A DNA stretch of 13,512 nt from a virus. Taxonomy: Duplodnaviria; Heunggongvirae; Uroviricota; Caudoviricetes. The DNA lies in the IMG/VR virus record IMGVR_UViG_2693429524_000013. One strand, 5' to 3'. Positions within the stretch are counted from its first letter, which is position 1. The number at the start of each line of letters is the position of its first letter. Under the pieces are notes generated by a model. It made no database searches. It was not told the DNA's origin and saw nothing but the letters and a program-made list of their open reading frames with translations. The position numbers and the translations under genes are program-made. Positions 236-13,512 of the stretch are shown piece by piece.

Positions 236-694
236 TCAACCTCTCCCCACATTTGACCAGTATTTGATTGCACCGATCAAATCATCATAGTGGCGCATTG
301 CATCATTGAAGCCTTTATAGCTTGCCCATTGTGGTGAAACTTTGTTATTGCTGAATTGCCCACTAATCAGGATAGTCTCCAGAATGTCGGCGTATCGCTT
401 GCCAATTCGCTTCCTGACGGCCTCAGAGCTTCCACCCTTTACGATTGCATTAATCAGGGCTTTTGTGTGTCTCAGGCTCTCATAGAGCATTGCAGCGTGG
501 GCAGATTCCATAAATGAGCGTTTAGGCAAATCACCCCACCCCTCAGAATGAATTGCTGCCAGTGTGGCGTAATTCAGGCCGCTATAGTGTTTCCCGTCAT
601 CCCAGCCAACCGCTACACCTTCCATCTGTGAGAGCTCTTTATGCAGCTTATCCATCATGCGCTTGTCTATGGTGCACCGGACTTTCGGACTCAT
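236..694 (-). CDS. phage virion morphogenesis protein, HK97 gp10-like head-tail joining / tail-completion family (152 aa)
   Basis: Its ATG overlaps the upstream stop (ATGA at 691-694), indicating translational coupling. The segment NYATLAAIHSEGWGDLPKRSFMESA resembles the YA..hEfG...P.RPF motif of HK97 gp10-type proteins. It sits in an operon with capsid genes. Family assignment is from memory only. Confidence 0.55.
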   Translation of the reverse strand: MSPKVRCTIDKRMMDKLHKELSQMEGVAVGWDDGKHYSGLNYATLAAIHSEGWGDLPKRSFMESAHAAMLYESLRHTKALINAIVKGGSSEAVRKRIGKRYADILETILISGQFSNNKVSPQWASYKGFNDAMRHYDDLIGAIKYWSNVGRG

Positions 695-1503
695 TTGTTG
701 ATCTCCGTGATGTCATCAAGCAACATGTTGGCCTTATCAATCATCGTTTCGTGGAACTCATTCGACACAACAGACTTATCACCTGCGGCAATCTTTCCCG
801 CTGCCTCTCCCTGTGCATATTCCCCGCGATGCTTAGCCCTGGTTGATTTCGTAGCAGCATTGCCAGCGTTACTACCCTCTTTAGCACTATTAACAGCACC
901 CTTTTGCTGTGTTTTGTTCACCTTCTTACTGTTAGTGAAAACTCCGGCATTTTCGACCATCTTCACCTTGAAGGTGCGGAATTCTTCAAAGGTGCAATCA
1001 ATAGTGATGCAGTCACCGGAGGAAGAGCTACGCTTAACTTCACATTTCGTCATGATGAAGTTCTCAAGGAGTCCGGCATCTTCACTCACCAGGCTAACAA
1101 GCTGGCGCTTGTCTCTCATTTCCATAAGTGCCTGAACAGCGGCAGCAGGGCGCATAGATTCACGGGGATTATCTGGATCAGTGTTCCGGTCGATGTAGTT
1201 CTCTTTCCGGATGATATGAGGAGAAGAGGTAATAATGCCCGTAAAGCTGACAGATTTATCTTTAATGACGGCATGGTCTGACATGGTGGTGCCATCCTCG
1301 ACCGCATAGCTCGATTTCTCAACAGGGAACGAATAGCTGACATCAGAGATAGAGTCAAAGAAGATAGCCACGTTATCGGTATAGTTGAAGCCATCCATTA
1401 TATTTTTGTTTTGTGAATATCCCCCACACATAACAGTGAATGCAGGAGATCTCGACTCAGCTTGTTTTGCAGCTGTCAGAGCATCATTAGCCATATTAAA
1501 CAT
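691..1503 (-). CDS. hypothetical virion structural protein with a Lys/Ala/Gly-rich C-terminal low-complexity tail (~270 aa from ATG 1503 or 1494; the track ORF extends to a TTG at 1611)
   Basis: Long minus-strand ORF coupled to the downstream gene. The 1611 start is a TTG with no SD. GGAGG lies just upstream of ATG 1503 and ATG 1494. The central segment SFPVEKSSYAVEDGTTMSDHAVIKDKSVSFTGII looks like a beta-rich tail/baseplate-type fold, but no family is recognised with certainty. Confidence 0.6.
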   Translation of the reverse strand: MFNMANDALTAAKQAESRSPAFTVMCGGYSQNKNIMDGFNYTDNVAIFFDSISDVSYSFPVEKSSYAVEDGTTMSDHAVIKDKSVSFTGIITSSPHIIRKENYIDRNTDPDNPRESMRPAAAVQALMEMRDKRQLVSLVSEDAGLLENFIMTKCEVKRSSSSGDCITIDCTFEEFRTFKVKMVENAGVFTNSKKVNKTQQKGAVNSAKEGSNAGNAATKSTRAKHRGEYAQGEAAGKIAAGDKSVVSNEFHETMIDKANMLLDDITEINK

Positions 1504-1699
1504 GCCTCCAAATTGGTCCACTTCTTTCGCTGGCTTAGCCAGGTGACTAAGGTCACCCCTTCGGGCGTGAGTGGATTTAGCTAAAGCTAAACCTGCAAAA
1601 GATGCAGGCAAAATAGAACTTATCGTTGCCCTGCTTAAAATCTGCAGAAAATACAGGGCAGTTATTCGTTAGAATCGCTTATAGCTCTTCCCGAGAGCG

Positions 1700-2065: not shown

Positions 2066-3112
2066 TTATTTAGCCTTGGCTTTTGCCAGAGCAGCGGCGG
2101 CGGAGTTACTAACACTCACTTTAACCACAACTTCAGGCATCATGTTCATGAAAGCATAAGAGGATTCAATGAAGATTTCTCGTTTACCTCTGGACTCTTC
2201 CATATACATGAAAGCTTCACGTGCAGCGCCGTTTGCAAGCTTCAGGTTGCGAGCGCAAGGGCCGAAAAATTGAGTATAAACGCCCACCATATCGCCTAAC
2301 GCATGTGGCTGGAATTGTGGGACCAGATAAGCAGTATTCTCTGGCAGACTATCCATTTGCACCACACGCAGGGCTAAGCCCGGAATGCGGAAGGTCGGGA
2401 AGCCCGGCAGAATATCCTCAGGGAACATCAGGCCTTTGTCAGTGATATTTTGATTGCCGAACAACAGCACCTTACGGAGCAGTTCATCAGTCTGAATTGC
2501 AGCAAAGAGTTCAGCACGGCAGAACAGGGTGAAACCACGCAGAGCACGAACGACACCACGCTGTTTAACCTTGCTCAGTGCAACCAGGTCCTGCAGCTGT
2601 TTAAGGATATCTTTAGCTAAATCCACTTCTGAAGTGGTTTGCTGTGCGCCCAGCAGTTCGCACACATTCAGTTCTTTACCCTTGGTGAGGATAATTTTGT
2701 TCTCAAAGAGAGCAAGCTGGCGTGCTTCTTCGTGGGTCTGGCGTAAGCCTTCGCCAAGCTGAATAACACGACGAGCGGTTACAGACTCTAAATTCTCTTC
2801 GGAATCTTTGCCCGGAACGCGGATACCCTGCCAGTCAGAAGGATAAATAGCACTTGATGCGGCAGTGAATGCCATATCACCCGTGCCCGTTTCACGCTCA
2901 TCTGCGGTAATGGTCGCCATCTGTTCACCGTAGCGAGGATACTGACCGAAAGCAGATTGTTTCACCTGGCGAACTTTGTCATATTCAAATTTAAAGGTAT
3001 TGCACAGAGCAGTAGTGTTGAAGATATCCATTGCTGAAATAATCTGGTTATCCAGCGGGATGTCTTTAATCAGACCACACAGATCGCGAACTTCGAATTC
3101 TTTCTTAGCCAT
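2066..3112 (-). CDS. major capsid protein, lambda gpE-like family (348 aa from ATG 3112)
   Basis: AAGGAGG SD lies 6 nt upstream of ATG 3112; the track start at 3118 is a TTG. Size (~350 aa), position directly after a decoration-protein gene, and overall sequence character match the phage major capsid protein E family. A strong terminator lies downstream. Confidence 0.8.
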   Translation of the reverse strand: MAKKEFEVRDLCGLIKDIPLDNQIISAMDIFNTTALCNTFKFEYDKVRQVKQSAFGQYPRYGEQMATITADERETGTGDMAFTAASSAIYPSDWQGIRVPGKDSEENLESVTARRVIQLGEGLRQTHEEARQLALFENKIILTKGKELNVCELLGAQQTTSEVDLAKDILKQLQDLVALSKVKQRGVVRALRGFTLFCRAELFAAIQTDELLRKVLLFGNQNITDKGLMFPEDILPGFPTFRIPGLALRVVQMDSLPENTAYLVPQFQPHALGDMVGVYTQFFGPCARNLKLANGAAREAFMYMEESRGKREIFIESSYAFMNMMPEVVVKVSVSNSAAAALAKAKAK

Positions 3113-3123
3113 CTTCAACCTCC

Positions 3124-3459: not shown

Positions 3460-3584
3460 TTGATCACCTGCGATTTAAATTAACTCCCCTCAAAGAGTTC
3501 CGGTATAACCTCTCAAACCGCGACAGGCTCGGGCCGAAAAGTTATGCCGGAAATCTAAAGGGAAATTGATACAAGGAAAGGGAG

Positions 3585-3614
3585 ATAGCCCCGCACCGTC
3601 CAAGCGGGGGCTAT
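3585..3614 (-). terminator. GC-rich stem-loop in the leader of the capsid operon (possible attenuator)
   Basis: ATAGCCCCGC (3585-3594) pairs with GCGGGGGCTAT (3604-3614) with one bulge. On the minus strand it is followed by CUCCCUUUCCUUG, which is only moderately U-rich. Confidence 0.3.
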
Positions 3615-3787
3615 TCCATATGGGGAAAACCAACAACAGTTGGCTGATAGTTCACAGTATGGTTACGGTTACTAGAGAGCACTATCACGAAAGGCACTCC
3701 CCCGAATCAGTTCAGGCTGCGGTCACATCAGCGGGGAAATACCTTTCGGGATAGCTACCCACACAGAAAACCCGCAAAAGAAAACTG

Positions 3788-3796
3788 TGTGGATAA
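3788..3796. promoter_or_regulatory. consensus DnaA box (TGTGGATAA = TTATCCACA)
   Basis: Exact 9/9 match to the R-type DnaA box. It is a single copy in the non-coding leader. Confidence 0.3.
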
Positions 3797-3943
3797 CTAG
3801 CCCAATAGGAGAATTAATCGACCACTCAACGATGATCAGGGTAGTGTTATTTATAAGGCGGCACCGCTACCTGGTCGCCGTTACTTTGGAGGAAAATACG
3901 GCAAATCAAGATCTTCTCACATTGATATTGACGCCATATGTAT

Positions 3944-3972
3944 ATTATATCAGTATTTACTCACATTGTCAA
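3944..3972 (-). promoter_or_regulatory. perfect-consensus sigma70 promoter firing leftward toward the capsid operon
   Basis: The minus strand reads TTGACA (3972-3967), a 17-nt spacer, then TATAAT (3949-3944), with a TGn extended -10 (ctgaTATAAT). The -35 context is TTGACAAT, as in the three rightward promoters. Confidence 0.75.
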
Positions 3973-4070
3973 CACCCTGATTATATAAATTCTAATAATT
4001 AGCGTAGTAACGGTATTTTCAGACCTCTATCAATCCCATCAATACGTCACCCCACCCTTTAGACATATAC

Positions 4071-4101: not shown

Positions 4102-4195
4102 ATCCGTTGATCCTGATCAAGGTTTTCCGGGGATTTACCCGGTTATAGTTCGAATCAAGGAAGGGGAGCATTGATAGCACCCAAACCGAACAAAC

Positions 4196-4213
4196 AAATC
4201 AACTTCTCGCAAA
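4196..4213 (+). repeat. 18-nt motif AAATCAACTTCTCGCAAA, copy 1
   Basis: Identical to 4739-4756. It ends exactly 11 nt before ATG 4225. Confidence 0.85.
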
Positions 4214-4224
4214 AGGTGATAGTT

Positions 4225-4347
4225 ATGGGTATCAAGAACAGTGCCAGCGCATGGCAAAAGGCCAGGTTTCATCACCCACACATTGTTAAGGCAATTGAGG
4301 TGGTTGGAGTGTTAGCCCTGATGTTAGCTCTGTGTGTGGAGGTGTGA
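4225..4347 (+). CDS. 40-aa small membrane peptide (MGIKNSASAWQKARFHHPHIVKAIEVVGVLALMLALCVEV)
   Basis: Not in the ORF track because it is under 60 aa. AGGTGA SD lies 7 nt upstream. It has a hydrophobic C-terminal helix. Its stop is followed 1 nt later by another SD-led ATG (4349, 22 codons). Confidence 0.45.
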   Translation: MGIKNSASAWQKARFHHPHIVKAIEVVGVLALMLALCVEV

Positions 4348-4449
4348 GATGGGCAAAGGAGGCAAAGCATTTTTTAATAGGTCTGGCTATCCTGGATGTT
4401 CTACTAATCATGATTGAGCGGAGTTTATGAACAGCATTGAGAGGAGTTT

Positions 4450-4710
4450 ATGACGGGGGCTAAAGATATCAGGAGACTGAGGGAAGAGCTGATAGCTGAA
4501 ATTAAAGCTAAGGCAAAGCAAATGGAGATAGCCGCACAAATGGATGTAGCGGAACAGATGTACAAGATGGTTGAAGAGGGAACACCACGACAGGTTATCG
4601 CTAAAACCTTCGGTGTGGGGATCGCCACCGTGCACAGAAGGCTGAAAGCCTATGCCGACTACCACAACATTGAGAGAGGGGAGGATGGGAGATTTAAGAA
4701 GAATAAATAG
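4450..4710 (+). CDS. small coiled-coil plus C-terminal HTH DNA-binding protein (86 aa)
   Basis: GAGGAG SD is present. The segment TPRQVIAKTFGVGIATVHRRLKAY is a resolvase/sigma-region-4-style HTH. Its ATG overlaps the stop of an 8-codon uORF (4427-4453). GGAGTTTATGA is duplicated at 4420-4430 and 4443-4453. Confidence 0.75.
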   Translation: MTGAKDIRRLREELIAEIKAKAKQMEIAAQMDVAEQMYKMVEEGTPRQVIAKTFGVGIATVHRRLKAYADYHNIERGEDGRFKKNK

Positions 4711-4738
4711 TGTGAACAGTCCAATAGGTTATTAACTT

Positions 4739-4756
4739 AAATCAACTTCTCGCAAA
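4739..4756 (+). repeat. 18-nt motif AAATCAACTTCTCGCAAA, copy 2
   Basis: Identical to 4196-4213. It ends exactly 11 nt before ATG 4768. Confidence 0.85.
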
Positions 4757-4767
4757 GGGGTACCACT

Positions 4768-5289
4768 ATGTTATTCCAGAAAGACAAAGAATCAGTAAAT
4801 AAAAGGCTTTTTAAAGAACTGGTAAAAATGTTCTTTCAGTACACTGCAGCGTTTTTGATAGCCGGGCCTTGGTTAATGGCTATCTGTTTTTACCCTGCTA
4901 CCTTGTTTATTGGCAGTAGCAAGTTCGGCGATGGCCCGTTTCATGTGGATATTGGTTTTATAGATTCTCTCCTGATCCGTCCTATAAATGCTGTTCTCAA
5001 TGCTTTCTACTTCCCAACTAGTCTAGAGGGGTGGGCGGTAACCTGGGGTGTTTTAGGCTTAGCATATGTATATTGGTTGGTTGGCTTTTTGTGGGGTGCA
5101 ATCTGTGCTCTCCTCGATATTGATACAGGATCAAGCCGTAGGAGTAGTGGTAATAATAGCGGAGCGGGTGTATATGCACACGTAGGTACCAGAGGGGTAA
5201 GTATCACCGCAGGTACCCGATTCGCTGGCGGCTGGCTGAGTATAGGCAAACGCGGCGTTAGTTGGAGAAAAAGCAAAAAACTGTTCTGA
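4768..5289 (+). CDS. integral membrane protein (173 aa) with a Gly/Ser/Arg-rich C-terminal tail reminiscent of DUF4236
   Basis: Two long hydrophobic segments are present: FFQYTAAFLIAGPWLMAICFYPATLFI and WAVTWGVLGLAYVYWLVGFLWGAICALL. The tail GTRGVSITAGTRFAGGWLSIGKRGVSWRK resembles DUF4236. A clean terminator follows. Confidence 0.75.
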   Translation: MLFQKDKESVNKRLFKELVKMFFQYTAAFLIAGPWLMAICFYPATLFIGSSKFGDGPFHVDIGFIDSLLIRPINAVLNAFYFPTSLEGWAVTWGVLGLAYVYWLVGFLWGAICALLDIDTGSSRRSSGNNSGAGVYAHVGTRGVSITAGTRFAGGWLSIGKRGVSWRKSKKLF

Positions 5290-5297
5290 CCTACCAG

Positions 5298-5318
5298 GGG
5301 GCCATCACGGCCCCTTTT
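5298..5318 (+). terminator. rho-independent terminator of the accessory cassette
   Basis: GGGGCC (5298-5303), loop ATCAC, GGCCCC (5309-5314), then TTTT. Confidence 0.8.
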
Positions 5319-5342
5319 CTATTTCCAGTCGCTATAGCTCCT

Positions 5343-5414
5343 GAGTAATTCCACTCCCTGAGGTCGTGATCAATTCCACACCCTACCCCCTGATCAATTA
5401 ACCCCTATTTAATG
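5343..5414. repeat. three ~24-bp direct repeats (TGATCAATTCCAC-type)
   Basis: AATTCCAC occurs at 5347-5354 and 5372-5379. TGATCAATT occurs at 5367-5375 and 5391-5399. A related 17-mer CCCCTGATCA(A/T)TTAACC occurs at 5387-5403 and 6284-6300. Confidence 0.6.
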
Positions 5415-5446
5415 GGTATTTAATGCCTATTTATTGATTTAATCCG
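5406..5446. repeat. AT-rich 11-bp phased repeats (TATTTAATG x3-4), resembling a DNA-unwinding element
   Basis: TATTTAATG at 5406-5414 and 5417-5425, TATTTATTG at 5428-5436, ATTTAATCC at 5438-5446. The period is 11 bp. Confidence 0.55.
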
Positions 5447-5514
5447 TTTTATGCCACAACCGCCCGGTTGACAGAGTAAGAGAGAGGGTGTAACCCTTTT
5501 TCGTAATACTAATG

Positions 5515-5530
5515 AAATCAATAAGTTAGC
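5515..5530 (+). repeat. 16-nt motif AAATCAATAAGTTAGC, copy 1 (matches IHF consensus WATCAANNNNTTR)
   Basis: Identical 16-mer at 13259-13274. The core AATCAATAAGTTA fits WATCAA-N4-TTR. Confidence 0.6.
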
Positions 5531-5584
5531 TTAATAGGCCTTTTCTCTATTTTTGTCAAATTTAACATACCCTAAAAAACTGCA

Positions 5585-5618
5585 AAATCTGGCTGCAAGA
5601 TTATCTGCAGCTGGATTT
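5585..5618 (+). other. 34-nt imperfect hairpin
   Basis: AAATCTGGCTGCA pairs with TGCAGCTGGATTT. There are 13 pairs, including two G-T pairs that are wobble only if the plus strand is read as RNA. Confidence 0.4.
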
Positions 5619-6520
5619 CTTACACCTCATTTTGTGGTATCACCCTGACTAGTTTGTGCATAAATTGAACAGTTTTTAACATTTCCTCTTCACCTGGTAA
5701 CCACACAAAAAGCTAAAAACGAGGCACAGATAATCTTAGAGGCCTATTTTCTTGTTATCACTCTGGAAACGTCGTAGAAGTGATTTTGATGAAAGGCGAC
5801 CTACCCTATTACACCCCCATTTTTTGTTATCACAATTGCATCCTGTGTGGCTATATGGCTATGTGCTGAAAGCGGTCTCGGGTGTGGGTGTCAGAAATAT
5901 CCATTAGCGGTATTTGAGCTTATGGGTAACTCGTCTGAGGTGCCAGGCAGGCGCTCCCCTACCTCCCTTTTTTCTTCTAACAATTCTCAAATATCACACC
6001 ACTGCCCACCACGTTGCTATTATGTTAATTCTTAAGCTTTGCTGTATGTTGTGCACATTATTTATTCAGGTGGCTGTACGTAAATTCTGTGCCCACTGAT
6101 CATGATTTTTAAATCAGATTTTGTAGTGCGGTTTCTTAGTGCTGATAAGATCTATTATGTTAAATGCAATTTTCCCAACCCTTCAAATCAATGACTTACA
6201 TGTAAGCATGCACTAACACCACACACAGCACATTAGACGTATAGATGGCTATATCCCACATATTTGATTGTTTTGTAGTCATTCCCCTGATCATTTAACC
6301 AGTATAGTTTGTTATCTGCAGACCACAAAATCGGAATTTACATCTGATTAACATAATCTGTTAGCATGATCACCATTACCCACACAACAATAACCCCATG
6401 TAAGCCTCTTCAGGCAATTTATCGGCGTGTTGGTGTGAACAGTCTTTCATGTTCTTTATGTATCAGTTGTCCTGTGTGGTGATTTGGTGGACTGCCCCAG
6501 GGGCCATACTTATGATGCCC

Positions 6521-6559
6521 GGTCAACATAGCTGTTGATAAAATCAACGGGTGTTGACC
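6521..6559. promoter_or_regulatory. twin palindromic operator-like sites
   Basis: TCAACA-tagc-TGTTGA (6523-6538) and TCAAC-gggt-GTTGA (6544-6557), with centres 20 bp apart. Outer arms GGTCAACA and TGTTGACC also pair. Confidence 0.45.
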
Positions 6560-6632
6560 TGCATATTTCCCACACATGAGAGGAAATCAGAGCAAAGAGA
6601 GAGGAGAGAGGTTTGTTAGTCACATATGGTGA

Positions 6633-6664
6633 TTTGAGCTCATCTCAAACCTTCTACGAAGGCC
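6633..6664 (+). repeat. two-hairpin module, copy A
   Basis: TTTGAG-ctcat-CTCAAA (6633-6649) abuts CCTTC-TAC-GAAGG (6650-6662), followed by CC. The 5' flank is TCACATATG. Confidence 0.65.
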
Positions 6665-6719
6665 TTTGCTAGTCAAAATCAAGTCACATTAGAGTCAAAT
6701 CAGATGCAATCAATCCCCC

Positions 6720-7051
6720 ACCTGTTGGGATTTCCCACATGTTCAACCATACACAGGAGCTAACCTGTTGGGATTTCCTACAACCCCTTTCAGTCATACT
6801 CAGGCACCACACCCCGGTAAATATTTCCCTACTACCCCGGAGAATTTCTCCGCACTACCTGTAAAGAATTTTCACACCTGTGTGTTTATACAATCATACT
6901 CTCCTGTTTTGCAGTCATTGCACCCATGATACACAGCCCTAACCTGTAAAATATTTTTACTACCCCGCCAATAATACGGCCCATACCTGTAAAATATTTT
7001 TACTACTACCTGTCAAAATCTTTTACTACTACCTGTAAAAATATTTGACAC
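6720..7051 (+). repeat. array of nine ~21-23 bp iterons, consensus ACCTGTAAAATATTTTTAC(TAC); candidate replication origin or centromere
   Basis: Units start at 6720, 6763, 6813, 6836, 6857, 6942, 6985, 7008 and 7031. The last three abut with exact 23-bp phasing. Each unit has an internal dyad. Confidence 0.8.
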
Positions 7052-7080
7052 TAATAGATAAAGTAATAGACCACACAATA

Positions 7081-7118
7081 GATCCCCCTAACCCCCCAGG
7101 GGGGAATGGGGAGGGATC
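7081..7118. repeat. G/C palindrome GATCCC...CCCCCC-A-GGGGGG...GGGATC followed by G-tracts
   Basis: C6-A-G6 lies at 7092-7104. Outer arms are GATCCC (7081-7086) and GGGATC (7113-7118). Downstream G-tracts (G6, G4, G3, G4) fit a loose G-quadruplex pattern. Confidence 0.6.
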
Positions 7119-7167
7119 AGAGAGTGGGGAAGGTTTTCTAAGGGAAAAGCTTAACCCACAAATGAAA

Positions 7168-7196
7168 GCCTAAAGAGCATTAGCGACTCTTTAGGC
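7168..7196 (-). terminator. 10-bp perfect hairpin, terminator-like on the minus strand
   Basis: GCCTAAAGAG (7168-7177) pairs with CTCTTTAGGC (7187-7196) across a 9-nt loop. The minus strand continues UUUCAUUUG. There is no U run on the plus side. Confidence 0.45.
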
Positions 7197-7208
7197 AATC
7201 TGTGTGTG

Positions 7209-7243
7209 GGGTGACAATGTATTCCATACATGACACGTCACCC
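7209..7243. other. nested hairpin
   Basis: Outer stem GGGTGAC (7209-7215) pairs with GTCACCC (7237-7243). The inner hairpin is ATGTAT-tcc-ATACAT (7217-7231). Confidence 0.5.
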
Positions 7244-7271
7244 TGCTCACATGTGTGGTCCACTTCGTGGA

Positions 7272-7310
7272 TTTGAGTTCACTCCGTAACTCAAACCCTC
7301 TACGAGGGCC
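7272..7310 (+). repeat. two-hairpin module, copy B (compensatory changes relative to copy A)
   Basis: TTTGAGTT-cactccgt-AACTCAAA (7272-7295) abuts CCCTC-TAC-GAGGG (7296-7308), followed by CC. It is preceded by CCAC-ttc-GTGG (7260-7270) and the flank TCACATGTG. Confidence 0.65.
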
Positions 7311-7356
7311 TTGTGTGGGGAGCGTAGTGCGATAGCACGTAGCTATATAATGTGGA

Positions 7357-7390
7357 GTCCGGATAAGAGACTTCTGTTTCCAATCCGGAC
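7357..7390. other. 8-bp perfect hairpin with an 18-nt loop
   Basis: GTCCGGAT (7357-7364) pairs with ATCCGGAC (7383-7390). Confidence 0.5.
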
Positions 7391-7410
7391 CGTTTAAGCG
7401 AGTGGTTTCT

Positions 7411-7436
7411 CGCGCGCGTGCACGCACACATATATA
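7411..7436. repeat. 26-nt perfectly alternating pyrimidine/purine tract (Z-DNA-prone)
   Basis: CGCGCGCGTGCACGCACACATATATA. It contains the 10-bp palindrome GCGTGCACGC (7416-7425). Confidence 0.7.
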
Positions 7437-7461
7437 AAGGATACACTCATAAATCGAAAAT

Positions 7462-7480
7462 AAGGCCCCTAAATGGCCTT
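7462..7480 (-). terminator. hairpin, terminator-like on the minus strand
   Basis: AAGGCC-cctaaat-GGCCTT. The minus strand continues AUUUUCGAUUU. Confidence 0.4.
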
Positions 7481-7616
7481 CTGGCTGCATTAACTAGTTT
7501 GAGTAGTGTAATTGCATTACCTGATGCTCAAATCGCGTTGTAGGGCCTCTTATGATGTTTGAGTTTAACACCCTCCAAAGTTTTAACAAAAAGTGCTCTC
7601 CCTCCATTGTGGGCCA

Positions 7617-8317: not shown

Positions 8318-9202
8318 ATGGCAAACAATAAACTGGGGGCACATTTCACCCCCATTTTTAAACGTTTTATCAAGTATAATTTTGAAAATCCAATTGCAAA
8401 AACTACAACAGGCAAAGAGAGATTTAATTTAAATGCGACGGAATTGATAATTTACGGGGAAATGGTTGGCTTTCATTTAAACGGCAAAGAAATATTCATC
8501 TCGGAGCAGACCTTAGCAGATGATTGGGATTTTTCAAGACCAACGATTATTAAAGCTATTAAATCTCTAGTAAATGCTGGGATTATTTCTAAAGATAACC
8601 GGAAAGGCAAATCTAACATTTACAAACTGTTAATTACACCTGAGCAGTTTGATAAAATGTGCGATGAGCAGGGTATTAAAACCTTAGACAGTGTGGGAGA
8701 CAGCAAAGAGGCACCTGCTACACAGGCCCAAGATAATCAACAGGAAGCCCCAAAACAAGCCACACAGCAGCCTGAAAAGCCCGAGGCAATGCAATCCCCT
8801 TCCCAACCTAAAAAAGAACACAGAGAACGCCGTAGAGACGCTGGCAAACGTGAAATAGATGAGCACGGTTATCCGATTCTGACAAGCGATGAAATGAATG
8901 CCAGATATAAAGTAATTCAGGCCGCATTTAAAGATCAGAAGAGAATTAAATTATCTGAATTGCGTGATACATTTTACGGGCCGGAGGTGATGGATAAAAT
9001 TAAAGGCACTATTCCTGATAAAATCTGGAAAGAGGAAGATTACTGGCACCTGACAGAGCAGGCCCTTAAGGTAGCTCAACACGTGGTTAAAAGAGGCAAA
9101 TCAATTATTATTGATTCTATTAGTCATGGCTATGATGCACCGAAAGAAAGGTTGTGGAACAACTGCAAGCTTGTAAAAGGCGAATTGACAATTACAAAAT
9201 AA
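8318..9202 (+). CDS. replication initiator candidate: N-terminal winged-HTH (lambda O / replisome-organiser-like), Gln/Pro-rich linker, C-terminal domain (294 aa)
   Basis: The N-terminal segment ISEQTLADDWDFSRPTIIKAIKSLVNAGIISKDNRKGKSNIYKL is a classic wHTH of phage/plasmid initiators. A low-complexity linker APATQAQDNQQEAPKQATQQPEKPEAMQSPSQPKK follows. The three-part architecture resembles lambda O. Confidence 0.6.
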   Translation: MANNKLGAHFTPIFKRFIKYNFENPIAKTTTGKERFNLNATELIIYGEMVGFHLNGKEIFISEQTLADDWDFSRPTIIKAIKSLVNAGIISKDNRKGKSNIYKLLITPEQFDKMCDEQGIKTLDSVGDSKEAPATQAQDNQQEAPKQATQQPEKPEAMQSPSQPKKEHRERRRDAGKREIDEHGYPILTSDEMNARYKVIQAAFKDQKRIKLSELRDTFYGPEVMDKIKGTIPDKIWKEEDYWHLTEQALKVAQHVVKRGKSIIIDSISHGYDAPKERLWNNCKLVKGELTITK

Positions 9203-11144: not shown

Positions 11145-13247
11145 ATGGCAATGAAGGAAGTCGCCAGACTAACAAACGTTATTTACTGGGATTCTGATAA
11201 ATCCTCCTGGCGAAAAGAAGTTAAACGGCTTGAGGATTATAAAAAATCCTGGAAGAAAGCCACCGACGATATAGCTAAAGCTGATTTTAAATCTAATCAG
11301 GCTGTGCTCAGAACACAAAGAACACGCGCTAAGGTGGAAGAGCAGATTGCCAGAGCACAGAAGAAACAACGTGCTCAGGCTGTCAGCCGTCTGACCGGGG
11401 GCAATAATCCGGAGCTCTCCTCTATGCGCAAGTTCTATCAGCAGCAAGCCAGAGAAGCCGCCAGACAACAAAAACTGTTAGATCGTAGTGTTGGAGATGT
11501 TCAGCACAGAAAAGCACGTGTAGGGGCCAACAGTGCACGAATCAGCAGCATGTTTGATGGATCCCTGGTTGCTCAGTTCCAATCCAGAATCCAGAGAGTT
11601 AATGCTGATTATGCTAAAGGGGCTATTAACCTGCAGACCTATAATCAGAAAATGGCTCGGCTCAGAGCTGAAATGAAGATGGCAACAGTAGAGGCCGGAA
11701 AATTTCAGAGCAGACTGGATAAACTGGCATCAGGTGCCAGCAAGGTGCATGACAACCTGGGCAAAATCAACTCCACACTAGGCAAGATAGCCATTGGCCT
11801 TACTGCCGCTGGCTGGGGTGTTCAGCGTGCTGTTAGTGGTGCTATGGGTAGCCTTGCAGATCGCAACAGTGCCTACTTCGGTTTGATGGCACAGAACAAG
11901 GATGATAAAGCCAAGACTGACCAGCAGATGGCCTACGTCAAAAGAATCTCTTATGACTATGGGATGGATCAGCGTGAGACCGAAGGCGGCTTTATGCGCT
12001 TTGCTGCAGCCACACCAAGCATAAAAGAGAAAGATAAGCAGGATCTCTTTGAGGCTATGGCGATTAAAGGCCGATCAGTGGGTGCTACTGCGGACCAACA
12101 GAACAGGGCTATCGTTGCACTAGGACAGATATATAGCAAGGGCGGTCGAGTGTATGCGGAAGAGCTTAAGGGCCAGCTGTCAGAAGCCCTGGCAGGTTCT
12201 CAGGTAGATTTCACTAAGGCCGCTATCGATGCCGGAATCATCAAGAAAGAGGAAGAATTTAATAAAGCCCTTGAAGATGGCAAGATCACCATGGACAAGC
12301 TTCTTCCTTCCCTAGTGAAAATCTGGGGTGCTGCAAAAGAAACTAAAGCTTTTGCTGAATCCATGAAACAGCCAGAAGTAGCAATGCAGCGCATGAAAAA
12401 CAGCTTTAACGAGCTGGCGATTCAGTTTATGGGTGTTGTGGATCCTGCCGATGGCGTTGTTAGCTTATCTGAATCTCTGATCTCCATCTTCGAAGACCTC
12501 ACCACTGATATGGACGGCAGCGGGAGCGCGGCAAAACAGTTTGGTGAAGCAGTCGGTGCTGCCATGCGGGAGATCATGTATTGGGTAGGCTTCGCTAAGG
12601 GCTATATCGAGGTCAAGGCTAAAGAGTTCGGCATGACCGGATCAGAGGTTGGCGAGCTTATCGGGAAACTAGTAGTCGGCTTAGCAGGTCTGAAAGTTAT
12701 TACCACACTGCTTTCCCCTCTAACCGGATTTGTTTCACTTGTCACTCAGCTGATAGCCTTGTTAGGCAAAATCCCTGGTATGAGCAAGCTTATGGCATCT
12801 GCCTCAGGTGGAACGGCAACAGGAGCAGCGGTCATCAGTGCAGGATCTAACGCTGAAAGAAGTTTCATTGATGGCAAGACGCAGGAAATGAGTAAGGAGA
12901 ACTCAAAACAGGGCGCTTTGTTTGAGCTGGGGAGATTTGTCAGCAATGCTGGCGCACTGTTCACACCTGGCGGTGATACTGGTCCTTTGTTCGATCAGGT
13001 CAAAGGCTGGTTTAATAAAGGGCCAACATTGACAGTAGACACTGGCATCAGACCAACACCAACAGGCGGCATAGCTATCCAGAATGGTGGATATCAACCA
13101 GTCCAAGTAAATGTAGCCCCACAAGGTGAGATTTCCGGCAAATGGGAGATAACCATCGATGAGGGGGGAATTGCCAGGGTGATCCAGAAGGAAGTCAGCG
13201 ATCAGTTGGATTGGAAAGCCACACAGGAATCTAACCAGCTTTTCTAA
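11145..13247 (+). CDS. tail tape measure protein (700 aa)
   Basis: GAGGTG SD is present. The N-terminus is coiled-coil-like. The segment ALGQIYSKGGRVYAEELKGQLSEALAGSQVDF matches the conserved tape-measure domain core. Hydrophobic segments are present (LVVGLAGLKVITTLLSPLTGFVSLVTQLIALLGKIPG), and the C-terminus is Gly-rich. Confidence 0.85.
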   Translation: MAMKEVARLTNVIYWDSDKSSWRKEVKRLEDYKKSWKKATDDIAKADFKSNQAVLRTQRTRAKVEEQIARAQKKQRAQAVSRLTGGNNPELSSMRKFYQQQAREAARQQKLLDRSVGDVQHRKARVGANSARISSMFDGSLVAQFQSRIQRVNADYAKGAINLQTYNQKMARLRAEMKMATVEAGKFQSRLDKLASGASKVHDNLGKINSTLGKIAIGLTAAGWGVQRAVSGAMGSLADRNSAYFGLMAQNKDDKAKTDQQMAYVKRISYDYGMDQRETEGGFMRFAAATPSIKEKDKQDLFEAMAIKGRSVGATADQQNRAIVALGQIYSKGGRVYAEELKGQLSEALAGSQVDFTKAAIDAGIIKKEEEFNKALEDGKITMDKLLPSLVKIWGAAKETKAFAESMKQPEVAMQRMKNSFNELAIQFMGVVDPADGVVSLSESLISIFEDLTTDMDGSGSAAKQFGEAVGAAMREIMYWVGFAKGYIEVKAKEFGMTGSEVGELIGKLVVGLAGLKVITTLLSPLTGFVSLVTQLIALLGKIPGMSKLMASASGGTATGAAVISAGSNAERSFIDGKTQEMSKENSKQGALFELGRFVSNAGALFTPGGDTGPLFDQVKGWFNKGPTLTVDTGIRPTPTGGIAIQNGGYQPVQVNVAPQGEISGKWEITIDEGGIARVIQKEVSDQLDWKATQESNQLF

Positions 13248-13258
13248 TATTGTGATCT

Positions 13259-13274
13259 AAATCAATAAGTTAGC
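13259..13274 (+). repeat. 16-nt motif AAATCAATAAGTTAGC, copy 2 (IHF-consensus match)
   Basis: Identical to 5515-5530. It lies 12 nt after the tape measure stop. Both copies are preceded by TAATA(C/T). Confidence 0.6.
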
Positions 13275-13296
13275 CTGACCGGATAAACTCCAGGCA

Positions 13297-13329
13297 AGAA
13301 AAAAGCCCCTAAGTGTTAACAAAGGGGCT
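13297..13329 (-). terminator. rho-independent terminator for a leftward (convergent) transcript
   Basis: AGCCCCT (13304-13310) pairs with AGGGGCT (13323-13329) across a 12-nt loop. The minus strand continues UUUUUUCUU. The plus side has no U run. Confidence 0.65.
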
Positions 13330-13350
13330 CTTCTCCGGTATCCTTTTGAT

Positions 13351-13466
13351 GCGGGGCAAAACCTGCTAACAAAAATCAACCTCTCGCGAGACTAATGTTA
13401 GCAGGTTGCCGGAAGGTAAGTCAACTCCGGTCTATAAACCTTAAAGCGACTATAAAATTGCCCCGC
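13351..13466 (-). ncRNA. candidate structured RNA (three helices) ending at the 13297-13329 terminator; strand and function uncertain
   Basis: Outer 9-bp helix: GCGGGGCAA (13351-13359) with TTGCCCCGC (13458-13466). Perfect 12-bp helix: AACCTGCTAACA (13360-13371) with TGTTAGCAGGTT (13396-13407). Third helix: CCGGA (13409-13413) with TCCGG (13426-13430). Confidence 0.3.
13373..13390 (+). repeat. 18-nt motif, diverged copy 3 (AAATCAACCTCTCGCGAG, 15/18)
   Basis: It lies in the 24-nt loop of the 12-bp hairpin. The core has become the 10-bp palindrome TCTCGCGAGA. Confidence 0.6.
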
Positions 13467-13512
13467 CAATTGTGATGATCCGACCTTTGAGGCGGGTCCG
13501 GTGCCCAGGGGG

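Follow-up and report, generated by a model that had tools for sequence, protein, structure and literature searches.

An operon with a Hin-type regulator and an exchangeable envelope-protein gene in a small phage-like Escherichia coli plasmid: a possible immunity-type unit

The immunity operon of phage lambda, cI-rexA-rexB, is transcribed from P_RM, which is divergent from the lytic promoter. Other phages carry single envelope proteins of the moron or superinfection-exclusion kind, among them P1 Sim, T4 Imm, HK97 gp15 and P22 SieA. Here we describe a locus at positions 4196-5318 of the virus record IMGVR_UViG_2693429524_000013, a stretch of 13,512 nucleotides which was analysed at its full length (the window) and which represents a complete circular E. 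coli plasmid of ~ 13.5 kb. The locus is the rightward arm of a divergent promoter region and consists of two translation units with a conserved terminator at the end. The first unit encodes small membrane peptides and an 86-aa helix-turn-helix (HTH) protein, while the second consists of one exchangeable gene, referred to as slot-2, which in the window encodes a 173-aa membrane protein. As in lambda, a DNA-binding regulator would be co-transcribed with membrane or exclusion functions, a candidate weak promoter abuts a strong lytic promoter of the opposite direction, the operon is closed by a terminator, and it would be expressed during carriage of the element. We tentatively favour the reading that the operon is an immunity-type unit, in which a regulator would be co-expressed with envelope-acting accessory proteins during plasmid carriage and the slot protein may serve in phage exclusion or interference. 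The features of the locus are the following.

3944-3984, no strand assigned: overlapping divergent promoter region (promoter scan and alignment)
3972-3944, minus strand: leftward capsid-operon promoter TTGACA-17-TATAAT (12/12 match)
3956-3961 and 3979-3984, plus strand: candidate rightward promoter TTTACT-17-GATTAT (8/12 match in the window, read by eye)
4196-4213, plus strand: 5' element copy 1 (AAATCAACTTCTCGCAAA), abutting the Shine-Dalgarno sequence AAGGTGA and ending 11 nt before the pepA ATG
4225-4347, plus strand: pepA, 40-aa peptide (open reading frame, ORF; hydropathy)
4349-4417, plus strand: pepB', a 22-codon ORF behind GGAGGTG, frameshifted remnant of pepB (ORF; comparison)
4413-4453, plus strand: 23-nt tandem duplication at the junction of the pepB stop and the HTH start (repeat search)
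4427-4453, plus strand: 8-codon upstream ORF (uORF), its TGA overlapping the ATG at 4450
4450-4710, plus strand: 86-aa Hin-type HTH protein (ORF; Pfam HTH_7)
4739-4756, plus strand: 5' element copy 2, ending 11 nt before the ATG at 4768 and forming the upstream boundary of the slot
4768-5289, plus strand: slot-2 gene, type I allele, 173-aa predicted inner-membrane protein (hydropathy and charge)
5296-5326 (found at 5296-5316 in the scan), plus strand: intrinsic terminator with an 8-bp stem, 6 G-C pairs and a T-rich tail

For comparison, 17 related elements were collected, in which L001-L009 are annotated plasmids and L011-L017 are contigs (Logan, NCBI or ENA). Among 5,426 complete E. coli genomes, 7 were positive for complete circular plasmids of 13.2-13.7 kb that align with the window end to end at 81-94% coverage and 92-94% identity, and five PLSDB records match the window as well. 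The L014 lineage is 85% identical to the window, L011-L013 form a distant lineage within the set, and the HTH protein of the distant lineages shares only 40-45% identity with that of the window lineage. One further family member, L017, was recovered by HTH-profile scans of metagenomes and genomes, the other match of these scans being irrelevant.

The order pepA, pepB, HTH gene, element, membrane protein and terminator recurs in the lineages whose HTH proteins are only 40-45% identical. Over the whole family, the arrangement reads element with Shine-Dalgarno sequence, pepA, pepB, an optional pepC, HTH gene, an optional pepD, element with Shine-Dalgarno sequence, envelope protein and terminator. 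In the distant lineage, pepC is added between pepB and the HTH gene, and pepD, a 38-39-aa membrane peptide, follows the HTH gene. The peptide-HTH unit, the 5' element and a protein of the 173-aa tail family are thus kept at that distance, which argues that they belong to the core of the element; for the peptides, HTH protein and 5' element the comparison indicates such a core role in the plasmid. A preliminary description of the locus, made from the letters of the DNA alone, had taken the whole of it for a moron-type cassette. This holds for the last gene only, which has three alleles between conserved flanks, but not for the rest, which is core and retained in the distant lineages.

Unit 1 is a translationally coupled chain of pepA, pepB, a short ORF and the HTH gene, with stops and starts that overlap or lie at most 1 nt apart. 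Indeed, the pepA TGA (4345-4347) is followed by the pepB ATG at 4349, and ATGA overlaps are found at 4427 and 4450. The 40-aa ORF with its C-terminal hydrophobic segment is present at 4225-4347 just as first described; the peptide has a basic N-terminus and its hydrophobic segment, a membrane helix, spans residues 18-40. The pepA ORF is unbroken in all 15 family loci that carry element copy 1. In L011 and L013 it is shortened to 20 aa with the C-terminus retained (CVE[VL]; ...MCVEL as against ...LCVEV in the window), and one copy of the enriched word CCACACA/TGTGTGG, treated below, encodes this conserved CVE. Between the window and L014, synonymous and non-synonymous changes are equal in number (11.5 each) but fall on 25.7 and 97.3 sites, respectively, giving a ratio of non-synonymous to synonymous change per site (pN/pS) of ~ 0.26. 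On the strength of these comparisons we regard pepA as a real gene.

In the case of pepB, the 22-codon ORF that had been noted at 4349-4417 behind GGAGGTG does exist, but its frame is not conserved and it corresponds to a frameshifted pepB. The T-run at 4370-4375 has six T's (T6) in the window and in L016, five (T5) in most relatives and four (T4) in L007. The T5 frame is pepB, a 26-aa membrane peptide of the pattern MGKGGKAFLIGLAxLDxxLIxIExSL, and in the window this ancestral frame extends to the TGA at 4428-4430. A hydrophobic T5-frame peptide of 26-28 aa is also found in distant relatives; the homologues are of 28 aa in L014 and read ...FFIALIIFNxLMIALYE... in L011 and L013. The pN/pS of pepB, computed for L003 against L014, is ~ 0.36. 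The frame is broken in 3 of ~ 17 elements, and L012 lacks both pepA and pepB.

The coordinates of the 8-codon uORF, its overlap with the next ATG and the 23-nt-spaced duplication were likewise described correctly. By comparison, though, the uORF is a by-product of that duplication, in which the 18-nt block 4413-4430 recurs 23 nt further on at 4436-4453. L001, L002 and L007 have neither the duplication nor the uORF, and in them the pepB TGA overlaps the HTH ATG directly (ATGA), while L014 and L015 have a different pepB/HTH junction. The duplication leaves the coupled stop/start chain unbroken. The idea of designed, coupled micro-ORFs has accordingly been given up, as set against the relatives both the 22-codon and the 8-codon frames are mutational by-products.

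The HTH protein at 4450-4710 was borne out by a Pfam HTH_7 match over residues 30-65 that passes the gathering threshold (27.5 bits, cut-off 23.8), and by a match to the DNA-binding domain of Hin (1hcr, E 3.6e-4). Its AlphaFold2 model has a mean predicted local distance difference test score (pLDDT) of 83.6 and consists of one long helix at residues 3-42 followed by the HTH helices 47-54 and 58-72. Modelling and a structure search had been proposed for both proteins of the locus; for the 86-aa protein the model was confident and Foldseek returned generic HTH folds only (E >= 0.2), but for the 173-aa protein the model is unreliable. Homologues of the HTH protein are confined to this plasmid family and its pN/pS is 0.19. 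In the distant lineage it bears a C-terminal extension, for a total of 177-250 aa, and is 45% identical over the common part. A serine recombinase of the Hin/Gin/resolvase type was considered and rejected, given that Pfam shows no match to the resolvase catalytic domain and that residues 3-42 form a single long helix. PADLOC gave only two marginal matches in the HTH region (E 8e-4 and 2e-3).

Both translation units begin with the same sequence. A conserved element, TCAACTTCTCGCAAA, is found just 5' of the Shine-Dalgarno sequence at the start of each unit, and copies 1 and 2 abut that sequence and end 11 nt before the ATG in every relative. Its length is 15-18 nt, with the family core AACYTCTCGCA, and the distant lineage shows the variants TTAACCTCTCGCAAA and TTAACTTCTCGCAAG at the same position. 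When the 18-nt repeat was searched for with up to 3 mismatches, 3 matches were obtained against 0.05 expected, and 0 of 200 shuffled sequences reached 3. Hence the repeat noticed at 4196-4213 and 4739-4756 is real, but it is not carried inside genes as had been thought, and a third copy had been missed:

13373-13390, plus strand: 5' element copy 3 (AAATCAACCTCTCGCGAG) (repeat scan)
13360-13407, plus strand: copy-3 hairpin, a 12-bp stem with a 24-nt loop showing the element (RNA fold -22.9 kcal/mol, z -2.5)

Each genome has three copies, on the plus strand only, and the core is invariant across lineages. The copy-3 hairpin lies 3' of the terminator of the tape-measure gene and no ORF follows it. 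Copy 3 is conserved in relatives, and L011 and L012 retain the stem with arms that differ in sequence and are flipped (GCTGTTAG/CTAACAGC). The RNA around copies 1 and 2 is predicted to be unstructured (z 0 to +1.6). A hairpin sequestering the Shine-Dalgarno sequence was ruled out, because the copies in the 5' untranslated region (5'-UTR) are no more structured than shuffled sequences. Also rejected was an antisense partner, no complementary copy being found with <= 3 mismatches over 18 nt or <= 1 over 12 nt. Sigma-54, sigma-E, sigma-28 and T7/T3-type promoters, the T7 epsilon translational enhancer and boxA were considered as well, but none of them appears to fit the invariant core. The element would be a cis-regulatory signal co-regulating both translation units; it may be either a binding site (operator or half-site) of the Hin-type HTH protein, or a signal in single-stranded RNA adjoining the ribosome-binding site, with copy 3 as decoy. 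Neither the recognition helix of the HTH protein (ATVHRR) nor the core of the element varies.

In the window, and in L011, L013 and L014 as well, no 7-mer is more over-represented than CCACACA/TGTGTGG. It occurs 20 times in the window, with 10-12 copies per strand against ~ 1.2 expected, and is enriched about tenfold in every lineage. The copies are mostly in non-coding DNA, with two inside pepA (4276-4282 on the plus strand and 4333-4339 on the minus strand), and the word is possibly the binding site of an element-encoded protein. Examples from the 7-mer scan are given by start position.

3759, 3786, 4276, 4333, 5701, 5844, 6219, 6380 and 6473: CCACACA sites
6570, 7071, 7203, 7252, 7312 and 8217: further CCACACA sites

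Apart from these, the repeated word AAATCAAT(A/G)AGTTA was observed at 5515-5530, past the end of the cassette, and at 13259-13274, past that of the tape-measure gene, and also in L011 near 7720 and in L012 near 7826, 7866 and 8044; in L012 it stands directly 5' of a Shine-Dalgarno sequence. This word and the 18-nt element have AAATCAA in common, which is found 14 times in the window (12 on the plus strand and 2 on the minus strand) against 4.4 expected. AAATCAA was rejected as a genome-wide signal, since in an unbiased scan of 7-mers its excess does not stay significant once corrected and the word is not in the top lists of the distant relatives.

The preliminary description placed the unit between a divergent capsid promoter on one side and a clean terminator on the other, and these boundaries stand. 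The leftward promoter is near-perfect in all four lineages scanned (window, L011, L013 and L014), and an equivalent of the terminator lies 3' of the homologous gene in L011, L013 and L014. The unit had been called self-contained as well; this holds in part only, as no consensus sigma-70 promoter was found on the plus strand in the four lineages, nor did the promoter scan of the window detect a sigma-70-type promoter between the HTH gene and the slot. In an alignment of the intergenic region from six lineages, the GATTAT block at 3979-3984 is invariant, and the rightward version of L013 (TTGGCA-16-GATTAT, with an extended -10 TG) reaches the threshold of the promoter scan. Given the invariant block and the scoring L013 version, we infer a weak rightward promoter overlapping the strong capsid promoter. 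The rightward operon would then start at a weak promoter competing with the capsid promoter, with a leader of ~ 230 nt.

The leader upstream of copy 1 has further conserved blocks, namely CTATCAA, TGATAGA and GATC-rich palindromes at 4107-4120. The latter position shows a perfect palindrome, TTGATC-CT-GATCAA, with two Dam (GATC) sites, and a GATC cluster is seen at the equivalent place in the distant lineage (GAGATCGATCAAAGATTGATCA); this palindrome could be an operator or a methylation-sensitive site. Relative to the window, insertions with hairpins are found in the leader, one of 56 nt at 4068/4069 (in L003, L004 and L009) and one of 48 nt at 4175/4176 (in L003 and L004 only). L004 has an extra 49-nt hairpin insertion between the HTH gene and element copy 2, and a hairpin is found 5' of copy 2 in L004 and L011. 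The insertions look like small mobile or duplicated hairpin modules. On the other side of the divergent region, ~ 480 nt (3460-3944, minus strand) lie between the leftward promoter and the gene with which the capsid operon begins. In the close relatives this leader is more conserved than the coding regions, and it contains a perfect 8-bp inverted repeat, CCACACAG-N18-CTGTGTGG, at 3759-3792; the region may be a leader RNA with structure or may contain several operators. Rfam gave no match in or near the cassette at E <= 1.

The last gene behaves differently from the rest. Among plasmids with HTH genes 90-96% identical, similarity collapses a few codons past the ATG at 4768 and resumes at the terminator stem, and the flanks of the slot are ~ 95% identical among plasmids carrying different slot proteins. 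The slot is thus bounded by element copy 2 and, downstream, by the terminator, and three types of protein occupy it.

Slot type I (window): 172-179 aa, two membrane helices and a basic tail
Slot type II: 195 aa, signal peptide
Slot type III: 236 aa, two N-terminal helices and a periplasmic domain

Types II and III have a common C-terminal domain (E 2e-6), and all three are envelope proteins by sequence features and orphans. Outside the family, proteins of the tail type are found among small early genes of other phages (L010 and L019). As three unrelated proteins lie between the same 5' element and the same terminator, with relatives scattered among phages, slot-2 is on this comparison a genuine hot-spot or moron-type gene.

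The two hydrophobic segments that had been described for the 173-aa protein at 4768-5289 were found again. It has a basic N-terminus, a first transmembrane (TM) helix at ~ 28-48, a loop, a second at ~ 90-116 and a basic Gly-rich tail at 132-173 with a net charge of ~ +8 and a predicted beta-rich structure; following the positive-inside rule, the protein is predicted to be N-in/C-in with a cytoplasmic tail. An alignment of nine homologues has 33 invariant columns, all but five of which (28) belong to the final 42 residues, with the pattern GxYxHxGTRGxSxTxGxRxAGGWLSxGKRGxxWRKSKxxF, while the membrane part varies freely. This near-invariance suggests a specific partner of the slot protein. The DUF4236-like character once attributed to the tail was not supported, in that no Pfam match was obtained at E <= 10 for the 173-aa protein, for L011 and L013, or for P0019, P0020 and P0021, bearing in mind that the HMMER filters drop most matches above E ~ 0.1.

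The 173-aa family is rare. A profile search of 1.84 billion representatives retrieved only 7 cluster representatives, with P0021 as the sole informative new relative and two spurious repeat proteins. P0021 has 87 aa, with one TM helix and the same tail. In L019 (3844-4820), a fragment of an rV5-like phage, this minimal tail-family protein begins exactly where the rV5-like similarity stops. With the tape-measure similarity treated below, this may point to an exchange of genes with these phages or to one of them as helper. The 173-aa protein has no Pfam, PHROG, PADLOC, NCBIfam or PDB match, a scan of viral contigs with it gave no relative, and tblastn against phages with the 173-aa, 195-aa and 236-aa slot proteins and P0021 gave no match. 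A search of the family libraries for holin or spanin homology of the 173-aa protein detected none. Furthermore, PADLOC had no match for the operon peptides or the slot proteins, and the earlier statement that no known defence family is recognisable agrees with PADLOC, Pfam, PHROGs and NCBIfam, which were negative or only generic.

Taken as an immunity-type unit, the operon would work as follows. Transcription would start at the weak promoter overlapping the strong leftward capsid promoter, and the two would compete as in a phage genetic switch. The HTH protein would be the regulator of the element, acting on the switch and/or on the shared 5' element, which in turn would co-regulate both units as an operator for the HTH protein or as a single-stranded 5'-UTR signal. 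The membrane peptides and the slot protein would be made together with the regulator during plasmid carriage and act on the cell envelope, most plausibly by an entry block or abortive infection of incoming phages, paralleling cI-rexAB of lambda and sim of P1. The excess of synonymous change in pepA, pepB and the HTH gene (pN/pS 0.26, 0.36 and 0.19) supports this reading. Several points weigh on the other side. The HTH protein has no recognisable repressor-type C-terminal domain, and for its target there are equally good rival candidates, namely CCACACA, the TTGATC/GATCAA palindrome at 4107-4120 and the inverted repeat ATCTATCA/TGATAGAT. The rightward promoter matches at only 8/12 positions in the window and was deduced by footprinting. 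All proteins of the operon are orphans, no superinfection-exclusion (Sie) or abortive-infection (Abi) family is matched, and the AlphaFold2 model of the 173-aa protein is unreliable (pLDDT 48.8). Moreover, the conserved C-terminus of pepA coincides with the enriched word TGTGTGG, so its conservation may partly act at the DNA level, and pepB, being broken in 3 of ~ 17 elements, is therefore dispensable or variable. Should the immunity-type reading be true, control and immunity would be the task of this locus in a very small phage-like E. coli plasmid family. It would offer handles on the silencing of the element and on its envelope effect in the form of a minimal Hin-type regulator, a mutable 5' element, a T5/T6 on/off polymorphism and the swap slot. 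Taken by itself, the cassette is no surprise but an orphan operon of moderate interest.

More unusual than the cassette is the element around it, 13.5 kb with capsid and tail genes and no evident terminase or portal. Family searches identified the following genes.

236-694, minus strand: tail-completion protein
691-1611, minus strand: Dit-like baseplate protein
2066-3118, minus strand: major capsid protein
8318-9202, plus strand: DnaD/O-type replication initiator (Rep)
11145-13247, plus strand: tape-measure protein

No large terminase or portal is evident in the window because no ORF except that of the tape-measure protein, the sole one above 350 aa, is long enough. Family searches recognised no lysis genes among the ORFs of the window, the sole 'endolysin' PHROG match being a weak secondary match on the Dit-like protein. 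A nucleotide search of a phage collection with the whole window gave zero matches, and literature searches by protein accession, plasmid name and topic found no paper on the plasmid family. According to a 2025 review, plasmid-form satellites of tailed phages are essentially unknown (PMC12282955). The element could be a plasmid-borne tailed-phage satellite or else a defective phage-plasmid of very small size. Among phages, its tape-measure protein is closest to those of rV5-like (Vequintavirinae) and Felixounavirus myoviruses, at ~ 26% identity.

About 3 kb of the element is conserved non-coding DNA. At 5320-7500, ~ 2.2 kb have no annotated gene in any RefSeq copy. This region contains 11 of the 20 CCACACA words, several long imperfect inverted repeats and, at 6856-7049, five iterons of 20-23 nt (TACCTGTAAAATATTTTTAC) which are probably the replication origin; Rfam has no match within it. 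A second region, of ~ 500 nt (13248-13512 and 1-235), separates the convergent tape-measure and tail-completion genes. It is conserved even in the distant lineage (e.g. GACCTTTGAGGCGGGTC), holds element copy 3 in its hairpin loop and an inverted TTCTCGCGA site at 163-171, and is a candidate for a packaging or resolution site or a non-coding RNA. A tRNA search of the window found none. Finally, L009 (NZ_CP043822.1, 39,610 bp), which is recorded as a plasmid, consists of three 13.5 kb units joined head to tail, one of them degraded, and represents either a concatemer or an assembly artefact.

Other explanations of the operon were weighed against the immunity-type reading. One of them is a module for plasmid addiction or stress, with pepA and pepB as small hydrophobic membrane toxins comparable to Hok, Ibs and TisB; their synthesis would be kept low by the HTH protein and/or the 5' element, and the module would stabilise the plasmid. 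The peptides are indeed of 20-45 aa, very hydrophobic and under purifying selection, and the plasmid is of low abundance, with no annotated maintenance genes and no recognisable partition or toxin-antitoxin system. Weak antisense promoter-like sites (9/12 matches) are even found inside pepA in L011 and L014. Yet no toxin family is matched, the scan shows no antisense promoter above its threshold within pepA or pepB of the window, and the peptides are translationally coupled to the regulator and not separately controlled; in addition, pepB is frameshifted in three natural elements and L012 has neither peptide, so that we consider such a module unlikely. Quite unlikely in our view is a lysis module, with the 173-aa protein as a class-II-type holin, the small peptides as antiholin- or pinholin-like timers and the HTH protein setting the timing. 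No endolysin or spanin is detectable in the element, the 173-aa gene adjoins a regulator and diverges from the structural operon instead of standing at the end of a late operon, and 173 aa is long for a holin of class II. Siblings, furthermore, swap the gene for a signal-peptide protein or for a protein with two TM helices and a periplasmic domain, which is unexpected for an essential holin. Against this, the topology (two TM helices, predicted N-in/C-in) and the strongly basic tail fit the generic description of holins, further small membrane peptides are present in the operon (pepA and pepB, with pepC and pepD in L011-L013), and nothing else in the 13.5 kb element can be recognised as a lysis gene. 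It is hardly credible that all the small ORFs are chance frames in a regulatory leader and that the HTH and 173-aa genes alone are real. In all RefSeq copies the Prokaryotic Genome Annotation Pipeline (PGAP) does annotate these two alone, neither the 22-codon frame nor the 8-codon uORF is conserved, and two copies of the enriched word CCACACA fall inside pepA. But pepA is intact in every element with motif copy 1, pepA and pepB both have Shine-Dalgarno sequences, coupled stops and starts and an excess of synonymous change, and both have hydrophobic homologues in lineages whose HTH proteins are only 40-45% identical. This explanation is rejected for pepA and pepB and accepted for the 22-codon frame and the uORF.

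The remaining two explanations start from the element as a whole. In one, the operon would serve a plasmid-borne satellite as its interface with a helper phage; it would be induced by the infecting helper through the 5' element, and its membrane proteins would alter the lysis timing or DNA entry of the helper to the satellite's advantage. This fits the presence of capsid, tape-measure, Dit-like and tail-completion genes with no ORF besides the tape-measure gene long enough for a large terminase or portal, the absence of a consensus host promoter before the operon, the rV5-like phages as nearest relatives of the tape-measure protein and the minimal tail-family protein in an rV5-like phage fragment. 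It is made rather improbable by the fact that no helper is known, that the tape-measure similarity is only ~ 26%, that the element motif is unlike any phage promoter compared, and that the enrichment of AAATCAA is neither significant after correction nor seen in distant relatives. In the other, broader explanation, which we hold to be improbable, the operon would be the control and host-interface module of an undescribed class of mobile element, a plasmid-borne tailed-phage satellite with its own capsid and tail genes, AACYTCTCGCA would be a new cis-signal and the invariant tail a new membrane-anchored effector domain. The element would then couple the synthesis of membrane peptides and envelope protein to the trans-acting HTH protein or to a helper-phage product, the hairpin-loop copy 3 would act as decoy or sensor, and the basic tail of the 173-aa protein would act on the incoming or helper phage.

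To return to the immunity-type reading and the described systems, the closest single proteins and peptides each resemble one part of the operon. Like DUF4236 (PF14020), the tail of the 173-aa protein is rich in Gly, Arg and Ser and predicted beta-rich, but it has no Pfam match and the profile search of 1.84 billion representatives returned no DUF4236 protein. The 173-aa protein is similar to class II holins and pinholins such as S21 68 in having two TM helices, a predicted N-in/C-in topology and a charged tail; unlike these it exceeds twice their length, lacks an endolysin or spanin partner, stands outside a late operon and is exchangeable with proteins that are not holin-like. The operon peptides are comparable to the type I toxin peptides Ibs, Hok and TisB in size (20-45 aa) and hydrophobicity, but no antisense RNA gene and no family match were found, they are coupled to a regulator, and one of them is naturally inactivated in several elements. 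As to the 86-aa protein, its sequence matches the Hin/resolvase DNA-binding domain above the Pfam cut-off, and a three-helix HTH of the Hin type binds a non-palindromic half-site of ~ 12-13 bp, which is compatible with an element of 15-18 nt. It differs from Hin, Gin and resolvase by a 40-residue helix in place of the catalytic domain.

At the level of whole genes and operons, the slot gene resembles morons and superinfection-exclusion genes in encoding a small envelope protein, in having its own terminator, in being replaced by unrelated envelope proteins in siblings and in having relatives scattered among early genes of other phages. It differs from P1 Sim, T4 Imm, HK97 gp15 and P22 SieA in that it shows no homology to them, no promoter of its own was detected, and it has a distinctive invariant basic Gly-rich tail. 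Compared with the lambda immunity operon there is no relationship in sequence or fold, the regulator is without a CI-like C-terminal domain and the roles of repressor and exclusion function are here predictions. Moreover, coupled micro-peptides precede the regulator, the last gene is exchangeable, and a 5' element of 15-18 nt is common to both units. The architecture of coupled micro-peptides, a minimal Hin-type HTH protein, a swap slot and a shared 5' element was not found in the literature searched. It still fits a known kind, that of a regulator with envelope accessory genes beside a lytic promoter.

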